This document shows, one piece after another, positions 44,746-49,882 of a stretch of 64,000 bases of DNA. Numbering within the stretch: position 1 is the stretch's first letter; the number at the start of each line of letters is the position of its first letter. Origin of the DNA: Escherichia phage EC121; the sequence record NC_054909.1, one strand, 5' to 3'. Both the position numbers and the translations under genes were made by a program. The notes below the pieces were generated by a model. It ran no database searches. It had not been told where the DNA came from and worked only from the letters and a program-made list of their open reading frames with translations.

Positions 44746-44794
44746 AATATTTCCTCAGTATAAATATAGATATATTTATTACTCGGAAAATAGT

Positions 44795-45412
44795 ATGTAC
44801 CACTTTGTATATGAAACAACAAATCTAATAAATGGTAAAAAGTATATAGGAAAACACTCTACTGATGACTTGAATGATGGTTACCTTGGTTCCGGTAAGG
44901 CAATTCAGCAGGCTATAAAGAAATATGGTGAAAACAATTTCTCTAGAACAATACTAAAAGAGTTTAAAACTTCCGAAGAAGCGTACATGTATGAAGAAGA
45001 AATTATAACTCCTGAACTAATAAAAAGCAAAAATTATTATAATATGAAACCTGGTGGAATTGGTGGAATTGTTATGACTGCAGAGGTTATAGCAAAGATG
45101 AAAGAATCTTCCGCTAAGAGATTTGAAAACTCACCGGGCACGGTATTAGGTACAACTTGTTACACTAATGGAACTAAAAATATTTTTATTAAACCTGGAG
45201 AACTTGTTCCAGAAGGATTTGTAAAAGGGATGGTTCATCTTAATAGAAAGTCCAGAAAAGGATGTAAAGTCAAACCGACTACCACAGGAACTTTTTGGGT
45301 CAATAATGGAGCAATAAATAAATTAATACAACCAGACGGTATTATTCCCGACGGATTTATTAAAGGTCGTCTCATGAAAAGAGACTCTAAAGGCAAATTT
45401 AGTAAGGCATAA
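44795..45412 (+). CDS. GIY-YIG homing endonuclease (Seg-like; T4 segE position)
   Basis: 205 aa, N-terminal YHFVYETTNLINGKKYIGKH (GIY-YIG), C-terminal repeated NxxxIxPxxxxPxGFxKG modules; TATAAATA at 44759..44766. Confidence 0.8.
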   Translation: MYHFVYETTNLINGKKYIGKHSTDDLNDGYLGSGKAIQQAIKKYGENNFSRTILKEFKTSEEAYMYEEEIITPELIKSKNYYNMKPGGIGGIVMTAEVIAKMKESSAKRFENSPGTVLGTTCYTNGTKNIFIKPGELVPEGFVKGMVHLNRKSRKGCKVKPTTTGTFWVNNGAINKLIQPDGIIPDGFIKGRLMKRDSKGKFSKA

Positions 45413-45414
45413 TT

Positions 45415-46923
45415 ATGGATATTAAAGTACATTTTCACGACTTCAGTCATGTACGCATCGATTGTGAAGAGAGCACGTTCCACGAATTAAGAGATTTCTT
45501 TTCGTTTGAGGCCGATGGATATAGGTTTAATCCTCGCTTCAGATATGGCAACTGGGATGGACGAATCCGTCTTTTAGATTATAATCGCCTTCTTCCATTC
45601 GGTTTAGTCGGGCAAATTAAAAAGTTCTGTGATAACTTTGGCTATAAAGCCTGGATTGACCCGCAAATTAACGAAAAAGAAGAATTATCAAGAAAAGATT
45701 TTGATGAATGGCTTTCTAAATTAGAAATCTATTCAGGAAATAAAAGAATTGAACCGCATTGGTATCAAAAAGATGCAGTGTTCGAAGGATTAGTTAATCG
45801 TCGTAGAATTCTTAATCTTCCAACATCCGCAGGTAAATCTTTAATTCAAGCTTTGCTTGCTCGGTATTATTTGGAAAATTATGAAGGTAAAATTCTTATC
45901 ATTGTTCCAACAACTGCTCTGACAACTCAGATGGCTGATGACTTTGTTGACTATCGTTTATTCAGTCATGCAATGATAAAGAAAATCGGCGGTGGAGCAT
46001 CAAAAGATGATAAATATAAAAATGATGCACCAGTCGTTGTTGGTACATGGCAAACTGTAGTAAAACAACCGAAAGAATGGTTCTCACAGTTTGGAATGAT
46101 GATGAATGATGAATGTCATCTTGCTACAGGAAAAAGTATTTCATCTATCATATCAGGTTTAAATAACTGTATGTTTAAATTTGGTTTGTCTGGTTCATTA
46201 CGTGATGGCAAAGCTAATATCATGCAGTATGTTGGAATGTTTGGCGAAATATTTAAGCCAGTAACGACTTCTAAATTAATGGAAGATGGACAAGTAACTG
46301 AGTTAAAAATTAATAGTATTTTTCTTCGCTATCCCGATGAGTTCACTACTAAATTAAAGGGAAAAACTTACCAAGAAGAAATAAAAATTATTACTGGACT
46401 CAGTAAAAGAAATAAATGGATCGCTAAATTAGCTATTAAGCTTGCACAAAAAGATGAAAACGCTTTTGTCATGTTTAAACACGTATCGCACGGTAAAGCT
46501 ATTTTCGATTTAATTAAAAATGAATACGATAAAGTTTATTACGTATCAGGGGAAGTTGATACCGAAACACGCAACGTAATGAAAACCTTAGCTGAAAACG
46601 GTAAAGGAATAATTATAGTAGCTAGTTATGGTGTATTTTCTACTGGTATTTCAGTTAAAAATCTGCATCACGTTGTTTTAGCGCACGGTGTTAAATCAAA
46701 AATCATTGTATTACAAACAATCGGTCGTGTATTACGTAAGCACGGTTCTAAGACAATAGCAACGGTCTGGGACCTCATAGATGACGCGGGCGTAGTTTCT
46801 AAATCAAAAACATCTTCTAAAAAATACTCGCATTTAAACTATCTTTTAAAACATGGACTTGATCGTATTCAGCGTTATGCTGATGAGAAGTTTAATTATG
46901 TGATGAAAGAGGTTAAACTTTGA
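45415..46923 (+). CDS. uvsW: UvsW, DNA/RNA helicase
   Basis: 502 aa, Walker A LPTSAGKS, DECH box. Confidence 0.95.
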   Translation: MDIKVHFHDFSHVRIDCEESTFHELRDFFSFEADGYRFNPRFRYGNWDGRIRLLDYNRLLPFGLVGQIKKFCDNFGYKAWIDPQINEKEELSRKDFDEWLSKLEIYSGNKRIEPHWYQKDAVFEGLVNRRRILNLPTSAGKSLIQALLARYYLENYEGKILIIVPTTALTTQMADDFVDYRLFSHAMIKKIGGGASKDDKYKNDAPVVVGTWQTVVKQPKEWFSQFGMMMNDECHLATGKSISSIISGLNNCMFKFGLSGSLRDGKANIMQYVGMFGEIFKPVTTSKLMEDGQVTELKINSIFLRYPDEFTTKLKGKTYQEEIKIITGLSKRNKWIAKLAIKLAQKDENAFVMFKHVSHGKAIFDLIKNEYDKVYYVSGEVDTETRNVMKTLAENGKGIIIVASYGVFSTGISVKNLHHVVLAHGVKSKIIVLQTIGRVLRKHGSKTIATVWDLIDDAGVVSKSKTSSKKYSHLNYLLKHGLDRIQRYADEKFNYVMKEVKL

Positions 46924-47612
46924 ATTATAAATTAATATACGATAATTTAATTAATAGAGCCCAGAATCGGGCTCGCCTTAATGGATACACTGAAACTCAT
47001 CATATAATTCCTAGATGTATGGGCGGTACAGATGATAAGTGTAATTTGGTAGAACTAACAGCTGAAGAGCATTTTATAGCTCATAAACTTTTAGCTAAAA
47101 TTCATCCAAACCATTACGGTATAATTAAAGCCGTTATATGTATGGGGATGAATTCAAAGACTCATGAAAGACACGTTAATAAATCTTACGCCTGGGAACG
47201 TCGTAAAATGGCAGAACTTCAATCAGGTGAAGGTAATCCATTTTACGGAAAACACCATACGGAAGAACATAAACAATATATGTCAAAACTCATGAAAAAT
47301 CGTCCAATTACATGGGGAAGTAAAATTAGTAAAACTAAAAGAATGAACCCAACAAAATGGACTGAAGAAGCTAAAAGATTGCATTCTATCAATCAATCAG
47401 GTAAAAATAATGGCATGTATGGAAGGAAACATTCCGCTAAATCTATTCAGAAAATTAAAGATAATATGCCAGATAATTCAGGAGCTAATAACCCAGCTGC
47501 TAAACCTATAGAAGTAAATGGTGTTAAGTATAAATGTATGAAAGATGCTTCTAAAGCTACTGGATTATCAATGTACAAACTAAGAATACTTAGAAAAACA
47601 GTTAATTTATAA
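46920..47612 (+). CDS. HNH homing endonuclease with NUMOD-like DNA-binding repeats (free-standing mobile ORF)
   Basis: HNH core HHIIPRCMGGTDDKCNLVELTAEEHFIAH; repeats GEGNPFYGKHHTEEHK, GKNNGMYGRKHSAKS; no in-frame ATG before residue 33, so the start is probably the TTG at 46920 overlapping the uvsW stop (SD GAGG 6 nt upstream). Confidence 0.75.
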   Translation: MNYKLIYDNLINRAQNRARLNGYTETHHIIPRCMGGTDDKCNLVELTAEEHFIAHKLLAKIHPNHYGIIKAVICMGMNSKTHERHVNKSYAWERRKMAELQSGEGNPFYGKHHTEEHKQYMSKLMKNRPITWGSKISKTKRMNPTKWTEEAKRLHSINQSGKNNGMYGRKHSAKSIQKIKDNMPDNSGANNPAAKPIEVNGVKYKCMKDASKATGLSMYKLRILRKTVNL

Positions 47613-47625
47613 GGGCTTCGGCCCT
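47612..47625 (+). terminator. Hairpin AGGGC-TTCG-GCCCT after the HNH ORF
   Basis: Perfect stem directly after the stop codon, followed by TTTGG. Confidence 0.4.
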
Positions 47626-47637
47626 TTGGAGAAAAAG

Positions 47638-47868
47638 ATGTTACTAGAATTTAAACAATTTCTTTATGAAGCTTCTATTGATGAATTTATGGGTAAAATT
47701 GCCTCTTGTCAAACATTAGAAGGTTTAGAAGAACTTGAAGCTTATTATAAGAAAAGAGTCAAAGAAACTGAATTAAAAGATACTGATGACATCTCCGTGA
47801 GAGATGCTTTGGCAGGAAAAAGAGCTGAATTAGAAGATTCAGACGATGAAGTAGAAGAAAGCTTTTAA
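47638..47868 (+). CDS. uvsW.1: UvsW.1
   Basis: Track ORF starts at TTG 47626; ATG at 47638 (MLLEFKQF...) has SD GGAGAAA and gives 76 aa, the T4 uvsW.1 size. Confidence 0.75.
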   Translation: MLLEFKQFLYEASIDEFMGKIASCQTLEGLEELEAYYKKRVKETELKDTDDISVRDALAGKRAELEDSDDEVEESF

Positions 47869-47923
47869 ATTAAAAAAGGCCCAACCAAAAAGGAAGGGCC
47901 AAAACTATAGACTAAAGGTCACA

Positions 47924-48091
47924 CTATAGCAAAAGTTGTGTTTCATTTAATTGTTCTTCCGAACTTTCTGAAACTGGTAGTTCTTTAATGTAATTATAGC
48001 AAGGCCCAGGATGTACAGGACCTTTGTCTGTTTCAACAACCAATGCAGAATCGATTGGAGTTTTACAGACAACACAAATCTTATCTGACAT
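47924..48091 (-). CDS. Small zinc-ribbon-like protein (T4 uvsY.-2 position)
   Basis: Hand translation MSDKICVVCKTPIDSALVVETDKGPVHPGPCYNYIKELPVSESSEEQLNETQLLL (55 aa), SD GGAG; below the ORF-track length cutoff. Confidence 0.5.
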   Translation of the reverse strand: MSDKICVVCKTPIDSALVVETDKGPVHPGPCYNYIKELPVSESSEEQLNETQLLL

Positions 48092-49870: not shown

Positions 49871-49882
49871 TATTTATAAATA
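49871..49882. promoter_or_regulatory. Overlapping divergent late promoters in the 26/51 intergenic region
   Basis: tatttata 49871..49878 (minus-strand TATAAATA for gene 26) overlapping TATAAATA 49875..49882 (gene 51). Confidence 0.6.

Follow-up and report, generated by a model that had tools for sequence, protein, structure and literature searches.

A Mob-type HNH homing endonuclease gene at the uvsW/uvsW.1 junction of Escherichia phage EC121

Introduction

T-even phages are full of free-standing homing endonucleases. We analysed a window of 64,000 nucleotides from Escherichia phage EC121 (sequence record NC_054909.1), in which an additional open reading frame stands between the helicase gene uvsW (45415..46923, + strand, 502 aa) and uvsW.1 (47638..47868, + strand, 76 aa; Pfam UvsW-1, 1.5e-30). 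The locus raises the questions of what this gene encodes, how it came to lie there and where its product would act. An earlier note, made from the letters of the window, had described it as an HNH homing endonuclease gene inserted as a mobile element and probably translated from a TTG coupled to the uvsW stop.

The same homing-endonuclease annotation is already present in about 47 public T4-like records, e.g. those of T6, PST and ACG-C40, and our literature searches found no paper on this specific HNH gene. As such genes are abundant in T-even phages and this one is already annotated, it matters little as a discovery. Its setting can be read in some detail, and we find it very probable that a gene of the T4 Mob (HNH) family, encoding a free-standing homing endonuclease, invaded the uvsW/uvsW.1 junction.

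On the other side of uvsW lies a second, independent mobile gene, segE (44795..45412, + strand), which encodes a GIY-YIG homing endonuclease (Pfam SegE_GIY-YIG, 6.6e-9) and is annotated as segE in PST and T4. Its presence is independent of that of the HNH gene.

The reading frame and its start codon

The HNH gene is an open reading frame of 230 aa at 46920..47612 on the + strand, with a TTG start and a TAA stop, and appears in the list of reading frames exactly as the earlier note had it. It has 337 homologues at E<=1e-5 and is therefore not a chance reading frame. The last two codons of uvsW are CTT and TGA, the latter (46921-46923) overlapping the TTG at 46920-46922. The note had also stated that the frame lacks an early ATG, and the first one indeed encodes residue 34, in the motif RCMGG. 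Starting there would delete the HNH active site, because this ATG comes after the catalytic residues H27-H28.

Orthologues in Jiaodavirus, Dhakavirus, Gaprivervirus and a Morganella phage begin at the codon homologous to the TTG. Two lineages have ATG here and three have TTG, the codon overlaps the uvsW stop as ATGA or TTGA every time, and the N-terminal MNY begins at it in all five lineages, as it does in T4 MobB-E. The start position proposed in the note, overlapping the uvsW stop, is thus kept across the five lineages, and the TTG is a well-supported candidate for the true start. The GenBank record of phage SP18 misses it, and the active site is thereby cut off from the annotated protein.

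Domains of the predicted protein

The product belongs to the Mob family of phage T4, whose members are free-standing HNH homing endonucleases. BLASTP aligned it to T4 MobE with 52% identity over 106 aa (5e-32), to MobB (1e-26), MobD (9e-26) and MobC (9e-20), and to the C-terminus of I-TevI (3e-7, 32% over 69 aa). It also matches PHROG 655, "homing endonuclease", at 1.6e-61. All 48 homologues that were aligned have H28, N42, H51 and H55, and H27 is nearly invariant among them. The MobE match and these residues bear out the HNH identity that had been assigned by eye.

The Mob-type HNH catalytic domain covers residues 1 to about 75 (46920..47144, + strand), as judged from the alignment, BLASTP and a structure model. 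Its HNH residues are encoded, on the + strand, at 46998-47003 (H27-H28), 47043-47045 (N42), 47070-47072 (H51) and 47082-47084 (H55). It should be noted that Pfam HNH (PF01844) matches residues 23-44 below its gathering threshold (16.8 bits vs a cutoff of 21.4, E 0.0079), so membership in the HNH superfamily rests on homology to the T4 Mob proteins together with the motif, and not on Pfam. The AlphaFold2 model (pLDDT 88.7) predicts a beta-beta-alpha arrangement of E25-28, E43-46 and H48-61.

Two NUMOD-like repeats had been claimed for the protein, and Pfam NUMOD3 (PF07460) is found in two stretches, above threshold (51.8 bits vs 20.4, 7.7e-14). The first repeat comprises about residues 102-127 (47223..47300, + strand; best Pfam stretch 94-122) and the second, seen by Pfam and phmmer, about residues 160-183 (47397..47468, + strand); the limits of both are approximate and come from the translation. 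A strand plus helix-turn-helix DNA-binding module like that of I-TevI is predicted at the C-terminus (47496..47603, + strand, limits approximate). Pfam I-TevI_DNA-bd (PF20987) scores below threshold here (14.7 bits vs a cutoff of 27), a phmmer alignment pairs residues 157-216 with the I-TevI DNA-binding domain 1i3j (E 0.006), and the same domain is the top Foldseek match of the AlphaFold2 model (probability 1.00, TM 0.50 on the target). We found no further copies (paralogues) of the HNH gene within the 64-kb window.

Architecture of the insertion

Compared with relatives that lack the HNH gene, phage EC121 carries an insertion of 689 nt at 46909..47597 (+ strand). Coordinates 46906..47594 are equivalent, owing to a 3-nt AAA boundary ambiguity. 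The element entered five codons upstream of the uvsW stop and brought with it a substitute uvsW tail, GAGGTTAAACTTTGA (E V K L stop; 46909..46923, + strand), which holds a ribosome-binding site, GAGG, at 46909-46912, 7 nt before the TTG. The native uvsW tail, ACAGTTAATTTATAA (T V N L stop; 47598..47612, + strand), is displaced in its original frame and now forms the C-terminus and stop of the HNH reading frame.

Because the element's reading frame ends in the displaced tail, the insertion leaves the hairpin as it was, and likewise the ribosome-binding site and start of uvsW.1. The hairpin GGGC-TTCG-GCCC (GGGCTTCGGCCC; 47613..47624, + strand) had been taken for the element's own. This does not hold, as the same hairpin with identical flanks is found in the HNH-less phages L005, L006, RB51 and others, and it is native to the junction. 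The uvsW.1 gene has its own ribosome-binding site (GGAG, 47628-47631), and its expression context is thus unchanged by the insertion. In brief, the last uvsW codons are replaced and the displaced tail and stop are reused, so both neighbours keep their expression signals, which makes the element a clear example of a harmless insertion. The element in Gaprivervirus lies between two perfect copies, in direct orientation, of a 19-nt stretch of the uvsW tail.

Distribution among phages

The HNH gene is present in 47 of the 792 matching phage records, about 6% of Tequatrovirus records. T4 and most relatives are without it, and their junctions are clean, empty and identical to one another. A mobile insertion had been claimed, and the precise 689-nt indel, together with the absence of the gene from T4 and most relatives, upholds that claim. 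The statement that uvsW is followed directly by uvsW.1 stands for the HNH-less relatives but not for the T4 reference record, which shows a fused uvsW of 587 aa; this fusion is a sequencing error (PMC1524935, PMC6486255). Orthologues with 55-70% identity fill the same junction in the four other lineages, i.e. Jiaodavirus (13 records), Dhakavirus, Gaprivervirus and the Morganella phage.

The linked block in uvsW and the candidate target

A comparison of eight HNH-bearing with seven HNH-less Tequatrovirus alleles gave 36 fixed differences. All 36 fall within 46795-46922, in the last 129 nt of uvsW, while 109 further polymorphic sites are spread across the 1200 nt examined, and the 330 nt downstream of the insertion hold no fixed difference. 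Confinement of the fixed differences to the uvsW 3' end points to a target located there. The divergent block linked to the gene is at 46795..46908 (+ strand) and contains 29 of the 36 differences, the other seven being in the substitute tail. Its identity to HNH-less Tequatrovirus is 72%, against 94-98% just upstream. The same left-only pattern is seen in Jiaodavirus, Dhakavirus and Gaprivervirus.

Within the block, 46884..46908 (+ strand; codons E-K-F-N-Y-V-M-K) is the most promising stretch for the core of the target that the endonuclease would have in HNH-less genomes. Here every HNH-bearing allele class, in four genera, differs from the HNH-less alleles of its own genus. The segE gene serves as an internal control. 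Its target gene is uvsW (PMC2988022, Table 1), and it has an equivalent linked block at the uvsW 5' end, which supports the use of linked blocks for locating targets.

Instead of conferring immunity, the HNH-linked block could be donor DNA that hitchhiked with the gene. Naming a donor lineage was dropped, as the block is 65-73% identical to every sampled lineage. Two alleles from other genera may be recorded at this point. In the Dhakavirus phage UP19 the HNH gene stands beside an almost native uvsW 3' end, and in the HNH-bearing Jiaodavirus allele the upstream part of the block is the sequence that goes with absence of the gene in Tequatrovirus.

Expression

The T4 late-promoter consensus TATAAATA occurs upstream of segE at 44759..44766 (+ strand). 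As the only exact + strand match between 39997 and 49875, it is the likely source of a late transcript covering segE, uvsW, the HNH gene and uvsW.1. No exact match to this consensus is found inside or directly upstream of the HNH gene, and a scan for sigma-70-type promoters gave fewer sites than in shuffled sequences. The site TATAAATT at 46927-46934 falls inside the HNH reading frame. From the promoter position and the start-stop overlap we infer that the HNH gene is transcribed late and translated by coupling to uvsW.

An RNA hairpin of AAGUUUAAUU with GGUUAAACUU is predicted at 46887..46921 (+ strand) and would take in the first base of the UUG as well as part of the ribosome-binding site. 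Its predicted energy is -9.4 kcal/mol in the Tequatrovirus allele, and the other four lineages do not have it. We rejected it as a conserved regulator and keep it as a lineage-specific possibility.

Proposed mechanism

We suggest the following course of events. The HNH gene would be transcribed late together with uvsW, from TATAAATA at 44759, and ribosomes ending at the uvsW stop would restart on the overlapping UUG, giving a low level of translation. Like other Mob enzymes, the protein may then nick or cut the 3' end of uvsW in HNH-less relatives infecting the same cell, its NUMOD3 and helix-turn-helix modules binding a long target site. When the damage is repaired by recombination with the HNH-bearing genome, the recipient would acquire the gene together with the neighbouring uvsW 3' block. 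In the carrier genome the site is split by the insertion and the linked block has many substitutions, and these two changes would protect it. Nicking by MobA and MobE, coupling through the nrdA/mobE overlap and promoter-less cassettes have all been described (PMC2988022). The promotion of homing by Mob nicking enzymes was listed as an open question in that 2010 review (PMC2988022).

Alternative explanations

A target at some distance from the insertion is possible, though we regard it as unlikely. The enzyme would then recognise a uvsW "core patch" that lies 75-115 nt upstream of the insertion and corresponds to 46795-46836 (codons GVKPKSANTKKKYVH), the altered carrier patch GVVSKSKTSSKKYSH would be the immunity determinant, and HNH-less phages with the patch would be resistant empty sites. 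Cutting far from the own gene is common among free-standing endonucleases (PMC2988022). About half of the patch positions differ, with changes to residues that all other lineages conserve, the other HNH-bearing ones included, and the patch is found in all 47 HNH-bearing records, with an identity gap between 91.9% and 84.6%. Phages OES_C-1/2/3 and LH2 have the patch without the gene, T4-type sequence resuming between 46830 and 46836, and the reciprocal recombinant, the gene with a T4-type patch, was not seen. Other genera fit this less well. The HNH-bearing Jiaodavirus allele has T4-type sequence at the patch, HNH-bearing Gaprivervirus alleles have no fixed differences upstream of -43, and UP19 differs there from the HNH-less QL01 by 2 nt only. 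An immunity patch valid for all lineages is contradicted by these three cases and was rejected. Moreover, high divergence alone would suppress crossovers inside the 114-nt block and so keep the linkage, and the patch-only records may reflect just one or two independent events.

We think it very improbable that the gene is an inactive relic, i.e. a formerly mobile endonuclease gene that now cuts nothing and persists only through its linkage to uvsW. The BF15 copy is truncated to 195 aa by a 4-nt deletion, and the gene is infrequent in Tequatrovirus, both of which would suit a relic. The sequences speak otherwise. The dN/dS of the HNH gene is 0.03-0.06 within genera, at dS 0.15-0.27, which argues against decay, and 0.10-0.29 between genera. 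Nine copies from five lineages have intact reading frames, the catalytic residues are invariant, and the position of the start codon and the N-terminus are conserved. The HNH histidines in particular are intact in the alignment, so the loss by which the earlier note would have recognised a decayed pseudogene is not found.

Slightly less probable still is a domesticated nuclease, kept because it benefits the phage, e.g. by damaging the uvsW region of competitors or by working with UvsW. This would account for the strong purifying selection and for a position beside recombination genes that is fixed across five lineages, and marker exclusion by T4 endonucleases is established (PMC2988022). Yet the gene is patchy and in the minority in every genus examined, as expected of a selfish element and not of a beneficial gene, and its sequence gives no sign of a new activity.

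That a once-continuous uvsW was interrupted, or that the reading frame lies within a group I intron, can be set aside almost entirely: PST annotates uvsW-A/uvsW-B, Metamorpho gives uvsW as a two-piece join, the T4 reference has the fused gene and several records read "group I intron endonuclease", but the empty sites of HNH-less relatives already have the uvsW stop, the hairpin, a separate ribosome-binding site and the uvsW.1 ATG, the literature on the erroneous T4 fusion cited above supports the two-ORF state, which T4 shares with five distant relatives, a search of 46400-48000 against Rfam gave nothing at E<=1, and TIGR01453, with a cutoff of 56.05 bits, reaches 30 and covers just the C-terminal modules.

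Invasion of the junction by a Mob-type homing endonuclease gene, with a target at the adjoining uvsW 3' end, thus remains our preferred reading. For annotation, this means that the TTG is to be taken as the start, that uvsW is not split and that the labels intron, GIY-YIG enzyme and mobD do not apply to the element. The public genomes form a natural experiment, through their carriers, empty sites and patch-only recombinants, the four genera and the domain-swapped neighbours; it predicts the site of action of an uncharacterised Mob enzyme, and the prediction is testable.

Comparison with known systems

T4 MobE is the best T4 match, with the common core MNY...HHIIPRCMGG...N...EHFIAH. It is likewise free-standing and without its own promoter, and its start also overlaps the upstream stop (UAAUGA in mobE, UUUGA here), suggesting coupling (PMC2988022). 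MobE differs in that it has 141 aa, lacks the NUMOD3 pair and the I-TevI-like tail, and starts with AUG instead of UUG. Its locus, between nrdA and nrdB, and its target, nrdB, are also different.

T4 MobB, MobC and MobD have homologous N-terminal HNH domains (44-59% identity, E 1e-20 to 1e-26) but differ from the EC121 protein in their C-terminal modules and insertion sites. Each has a distinct C-terminal region fused to a well-defined HNH domain (PMC2988022). The gene name "mobD" used in PST cannot be read as orthology, since only the first 75 residues show identity to T4 MobD, and T4 mobD is located at nrdC.11/mobD.1.

The minor-groove helix and helix-turn-helix of I-TevI (PDB 1i3j, 1t2t) are the parts to which residues 157-216 of the HNH protein align. 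In I-TevI, which is encoded in an intron, the catalytic domain is of the GIY-YIG type and a zinc finger is present, whereas here the module is joined to an HNH domain. I-HmuI (PDB 1u3e), also intron-encoded, has a like design: an HNH domain at the N-terminus is followed by NUMOD-type helices and, at the C-terminus, a helix-turn-helix, arranged along an extended site. I-HmuI nicks DNA, an activity also reported for MobA and MobE (PMC2988022). SegE targets uvsW from the other end, with a divergent uvsW block strictly linked to its own gene; it differs in belonging to an unrelated nuclease family and in being experimentally characterised (PMC2988022, Table 1).

At least three endonucleases occupy the uvsW/uvsW.1 junction in different Tevenvirinae, namely the one described here, the Bp7 type and the Yersinia phage P8 type. 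Their Mob-type HNH domains are homologous, whereas their C-terminal DNA-binding modules are unrelated, being, in this order, NUMOD3 plus I-TevI-like, MobD-like and MobB/NUMOD1-like. The Bp7 type and the EC121 gene share the design of the 5' junction, with a substitute uvsW tail, a GAGG and a TTG overlapping the stop. We speculate, with considerable doubt, that the junction is a common landing pad for a modular endonuclease family. If the choice of site travels with the HNH domain and the 5' junction and not with the DNA-binding module, this would be an unusual division of labour for homing endonucleases, and the three enzymes would form a natural domain-swap series for the study of specificity.

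Insertion at the uvsW/uvsW.1 junction

The window belongs to a Tequatrovirus that is a close relative of T4 and T6; a 2.4-kb query around the HNH ORF is 97.4-98.3% identical to HY03, T6, PST, ACG-C40 and others. The ORF is found at 46920..47612 on the + strand, precisely where the earlier note placed it, and has 230 codons, the first being TTG. It is flanked by uvsW (45415..46923, +; 502 aa; Pfam UvsW_N, ResIII, DEAD and Helicase_C) and uvsW.1 (47638..47868, +; 76 aa; Pfam UvsW-1, 1.5e-30).

Far from being common to T4 and all its relatives, the ORF was contained in just 47 of 792 records matching the 2.4-kb nucleotide query, presence being scored as at least 80% query coverage. A tblastn search likewise gave 47 records with at least 95% protein identity. 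HNH-less junctions (records L005, L006, RB51, HY01, ESh34 and CE1) read ...AAT TAC GTA ATG AAA ACA GTT AAT TTA TAA GGGCTTCGGCCC TTT GGAG AAAAAG ATG(uvsW.1). The window has ...ATG AAA / GAG GTT AAA CTT TGA... on the left and ...CTT AGA AAA / ACA GTT AAT TTA TAA GGGCTTCGGCCC... on the right. This defines an insertion of 689 nt, 46909..47597, with a boundary ambiguous by 3 nt (AAA), and bears out the proposal of a mobile insertion.

Three features follow from the junction comparison. The element brings a substitute uvsW tail, in which E V K L stop replaces T V N L stop and which creates a GAGG ribosome-binding site 7 nt 5' of the TTG. The HNH ORF brings no stop codon; it runs on into the displaced native uvsW tail, in the frame that this tail had before, and ends at the old uvsW stop. 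The insertion leaves the native hairpin (47613-47624), GGAG and uvsW.1 start unaltered; the same hairpin sequence is present at HNH-less junctions, and the hairpin was therefore incorrectly assigned to the inserted gene. This aside, the earlier reading is supported. On either side of the Gaprivervirus element the uvsW tail forms a perfect 19-nt direct repeat, TAATTAAACAGGTGGAAAT, whose left copy departs from the native junction in two bases only, those creating the TTG and the TGA.

The earlier note also had uvsW directly preceding uvsW.1 in T4. The two are indeed separate ORFs in T4 and five distant relatives (PMC1524935; PMC6486255), but the T4 reference record NC_000866 shows a fused 587-aa uvsW, because ATAAGCTTCGG stands where others have TAAGGGCTTCGG at the uvsW 3' end (L002 3669-3700), a known sequencing error (PMC1524935; PMC6486255). 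The error is still in the T4 RefSeq and has spread 'uvsW-A/uvsW-B', 'split helicase' and 'join' annotations to other records. Since the T4 fusion is a sequencing error, the 'uvsW-A/uvsW-B' and 'join' labels are no sign of a split gene.

Start codon

The uvsW 3' end reads ...AAA CTT TGA, and its TGA is overlapped by the TTG at 46920-46922. The earliest in-frame ATG is codon 34, which comes after the catalytic His-His 27-28, so that an ATG start would remove the active site. This has happened in the GenBank record of SP18 (GQ981382; L046 1098-1697), where an ORF of 199 aa is begun at the internal ATG and thus lacks the catalytic His-His. The start codon is homologous across five lineages: the window, PSD2002 and TH40 use TTG, Roth77 and Rgz1 use ATG. 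In all five it overlaps the uvsW stop, as TTGA or ATGA, and the N-terminus is MNY, as it is in T4 MobB-E. These comparisons argue strongly for the TTG as the true start, as had been suggested. We consider the substitute-tail and reused-tail design, and the conserved non-AUG coupled start, worth recording.

It should be noted that codons 13-19 (46957-46974) hold a GC-rich inverted repeat, GAGCCCAGAATCGGGCTC, in AT-rich surroundings. All predicted folds contained it as a stable stem; the Jiaodavirus orthologue lacks it.

The HNH protein and its distribution

Homology to T4 Mob proteins covers the N-terminal 75-130 residues (BLASTP against T4 proteins: MobE, 52% over 106 aa, 5e-32; MobB, 1e-26; MobD, 59% over 75 aa, 9e-26; MobC, 9e-20), and the protein matches PHROG 655 'homing endonuclease' (1.6e-61). 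Pfam detects two NUMOD3 repeats (7.7e-14), with HNH (16.8 bits, cutoff 21.4) and I-TevI_DNA-bd (14.7 bits, cutoff 27) below threshold. A resemblance to the I-TevI DNA-binding domain was seen in the last 65 residues (BLASTP, 3e-7), and phmmer against PDB sequences matched this same domain (1i3j, E 0.006). Residues H28, N42, H51 and H55 are invariant in an alignment of 48 sequences, and an AlphaFold2 model (pLDDT 88.7) suggests the expected beta-beta-alpha core. In sum, the protein combines a Mob-type HNH domain with NUMOD3 and I-TevI-like helix-turn-helix modules, the three parts recognized in the earlier note. It has the design of the T4 mob genes, an 'HNH domain fused to a distinct C-terminal region' (PMC2988022). 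It is not an orthologue of T4 mobD, to which the match is limited to the first 75 residues and which is at another locus. Neither is it a GIY-YIG enzyme, nor, as Rfam was negative, an intron-encoded endonuclease.

The gene is already publicly annotated, as 'homing endonuclease', 'mobD', 'group I intron endonuclease', 'NUMOD3 motif protein' or 'hypothetical protein'. A full-text literature search found no paper studying it; a 2010 review counts three mob-like HNH genes in T6 (PMC2993671). Within the T4 Mob family it is an ordinary putative homing endonuclease. Orthologues with 55-70% identity occupy the uvsW/uvsW.1 junction in four other lineages: Jiaodavirus (Klebsiella phages, 13 records), Dhakavirus (PSD2002, ESCO10, UP19), Gaprivervirus (TH40, SP18 and others) and Morganella phage Rgz1. 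In Metamorpho (L023) and Nispero (L024) the orthologue is mislabelled as a GIY-YIG endonuclease, and in Metamorpho uvsW is erroneously annotated as an intron-like join across it.

The ORF is intact in nine copies from five lineages, with dN/dS of 0.03-0.06 within genera (at dS 0.15-0.27) and 0.10-0.29 between genera. Judged from these ratios the gene is under purifying selection, which speaks against a decaying relic. The BF15 copy (L036 1501-2088) has a 4-nt deletion that leaves 195 aa and removes the helix-turn-helix tail, through either genuine decay or faulty assembly.

Candidate target site in uvsW

We compared the last 1200 nt of uvsW in 8 HNH-bearing and 7 HNH-less Tequatrovirus alleles. 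All 36 fixed differences fall within 46795-46922, whereas 109 further polymorphic sites assort freely over the whole 1200 nt; the 330 nt downstream of the element hold no fixed difference. The 114-nt block at 46795..46908 stands as far from HNH-less Tequatrovirus (72% identity) as other genera do; the adjoining upstream sequence is 94-98% identical. One-sided blocks are also found in Jiaodavirus (approximately 148 nt, right flank clean), Gaprivervirus (approximately 43 nt) and Dhakavirus (in PSD2002, much shorter in UP19).

The segE endonuclease, whose target gene is uvsW (PMC2988022, Table 1), served as control. All segE-bearing alleles share one uvsW 5' block and all segE-less alleles another, with 32-40 differing sites in the first ~135 nt. 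As segE has this signature too, at the opposite end of uvsW, we infer from the one-sided differences in several genera that in HNH-less phages the HNH enzyme acts on the 3' end of uvsW. For the target core, the best candidate is the stretch of codons for K-F-N-Y-V, which lies 15-30 nt 5' of the insertion point. In four genera, every HNH-bearing allele class has at least two changes here when set against HNH-less alleles from the same genus (TAC GTA to TAT GTG, TAT GTT or TAT GTC; or AAA to CGT).

A target further upstream, in the strongly altered core patch at 46795-46836, is unlikely. Four HNH-less records, OES_C-1, OES_C-2 (L019), OES_C-3 and LH2 (L020), carry this patch, VVSKSKTSSKKYSH, and could be resistant empty sites, but the other genera argue against it. 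These four change to T4-type sequence between 46830 and 46836 and have a perfect empty junction; they are either recombinants or conversion tracts ending short of the HNH gene. The one-sided linked block with its patch-only recombinants is worth recording, and the K-F-N-Y-V codons remain our preferred candidate. By analogy with the Mob enzymes tested so far, which nick one strand (PMC2988022), we assume single-strand nicking.

The UvsW segment K-S-x-x-x-K-K-K-Y (46806-46818) is hypervariable between lineages, with conserved flanks (variants ANT, ANM, ANA, KDS, SMA, ATA, KTS, VNA, KNS and LNT). This could be a tolerant surface loop, or it could reflect an endonuclease target that has been under selection repeatedly.

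Other endonucleases near uvsW

uvsW stands between two independent homing endonuclease genes, segE (44795-45412) and the HNH gene, and all four combinations of presence and absence occur. The segE-linked block lies in the uvsW 5' end (45415-45594) and is strictly linked: the window, PST, T4 and LH2 have the segE-bearing version, and ZN18, G8, Sso113, AREG1, OES_C-2, L005 and L006 the segE-less one. HY03 (L034 about 2693-2815), F26 and G2540-3 have approximately 98 nt more than the window between uvsY.-2 and uvsY.-1, seen as a two-piece match in the nucleotide search.

Other Mob-type endonucleases occupy the uvsW/uvsW.1 junction in Bp7 (L041 1902-2684; also UGJNEcP3/4) and Yersinia phage vB_YenM_P8 (P0030; also P479). 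Their HNH N-termini are homologous to that of the HNH protein (47-52% identity), but their C-terminal modules differ from it, being MobD-like in the Bp7 type and MobB/NUMOD1-like in the P8 type. The Bp7 type also has a TTG start over the uvsW stop and a similar substitute tail, AAA GAG GTG CAG CTT TGA. Mob-type endonucleases with differing DNA-binding modules at one junction are worth recording.

Expression compared with T4 endonucleases

Near the locus, the + strand has one exact match to the T4 late-promoter consensus, TATAAATA. It is at 44759-44766, 5' of segE, and the next on this strand is at 49875. The HNH gene thus seems to be a cassette that lacks a promoter and is carried on the uvsW transcript. 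In the Tequatrovirus allele, a hairpin predicted at 46887-46921 (-9.4 kcal/mol) would partly cover the ribosome-binding site; fold prediction did not find it conserved in other lineages, and we thus give it little weight.

We suggest that the gene would be transcribed late with uvsW, and that its coupled translation may be limited by the stop overlap and the weak UUG. A promoter-less arrangement is described for seven T4 endonucleases, including mobA, mobC, mobD and mobE, and for MobE a start overlapping the upstream stop was proposed to limit translation by coupling (PMC2988022). The HNH gene has the same kind of overlap, here combined with a weak UUG.
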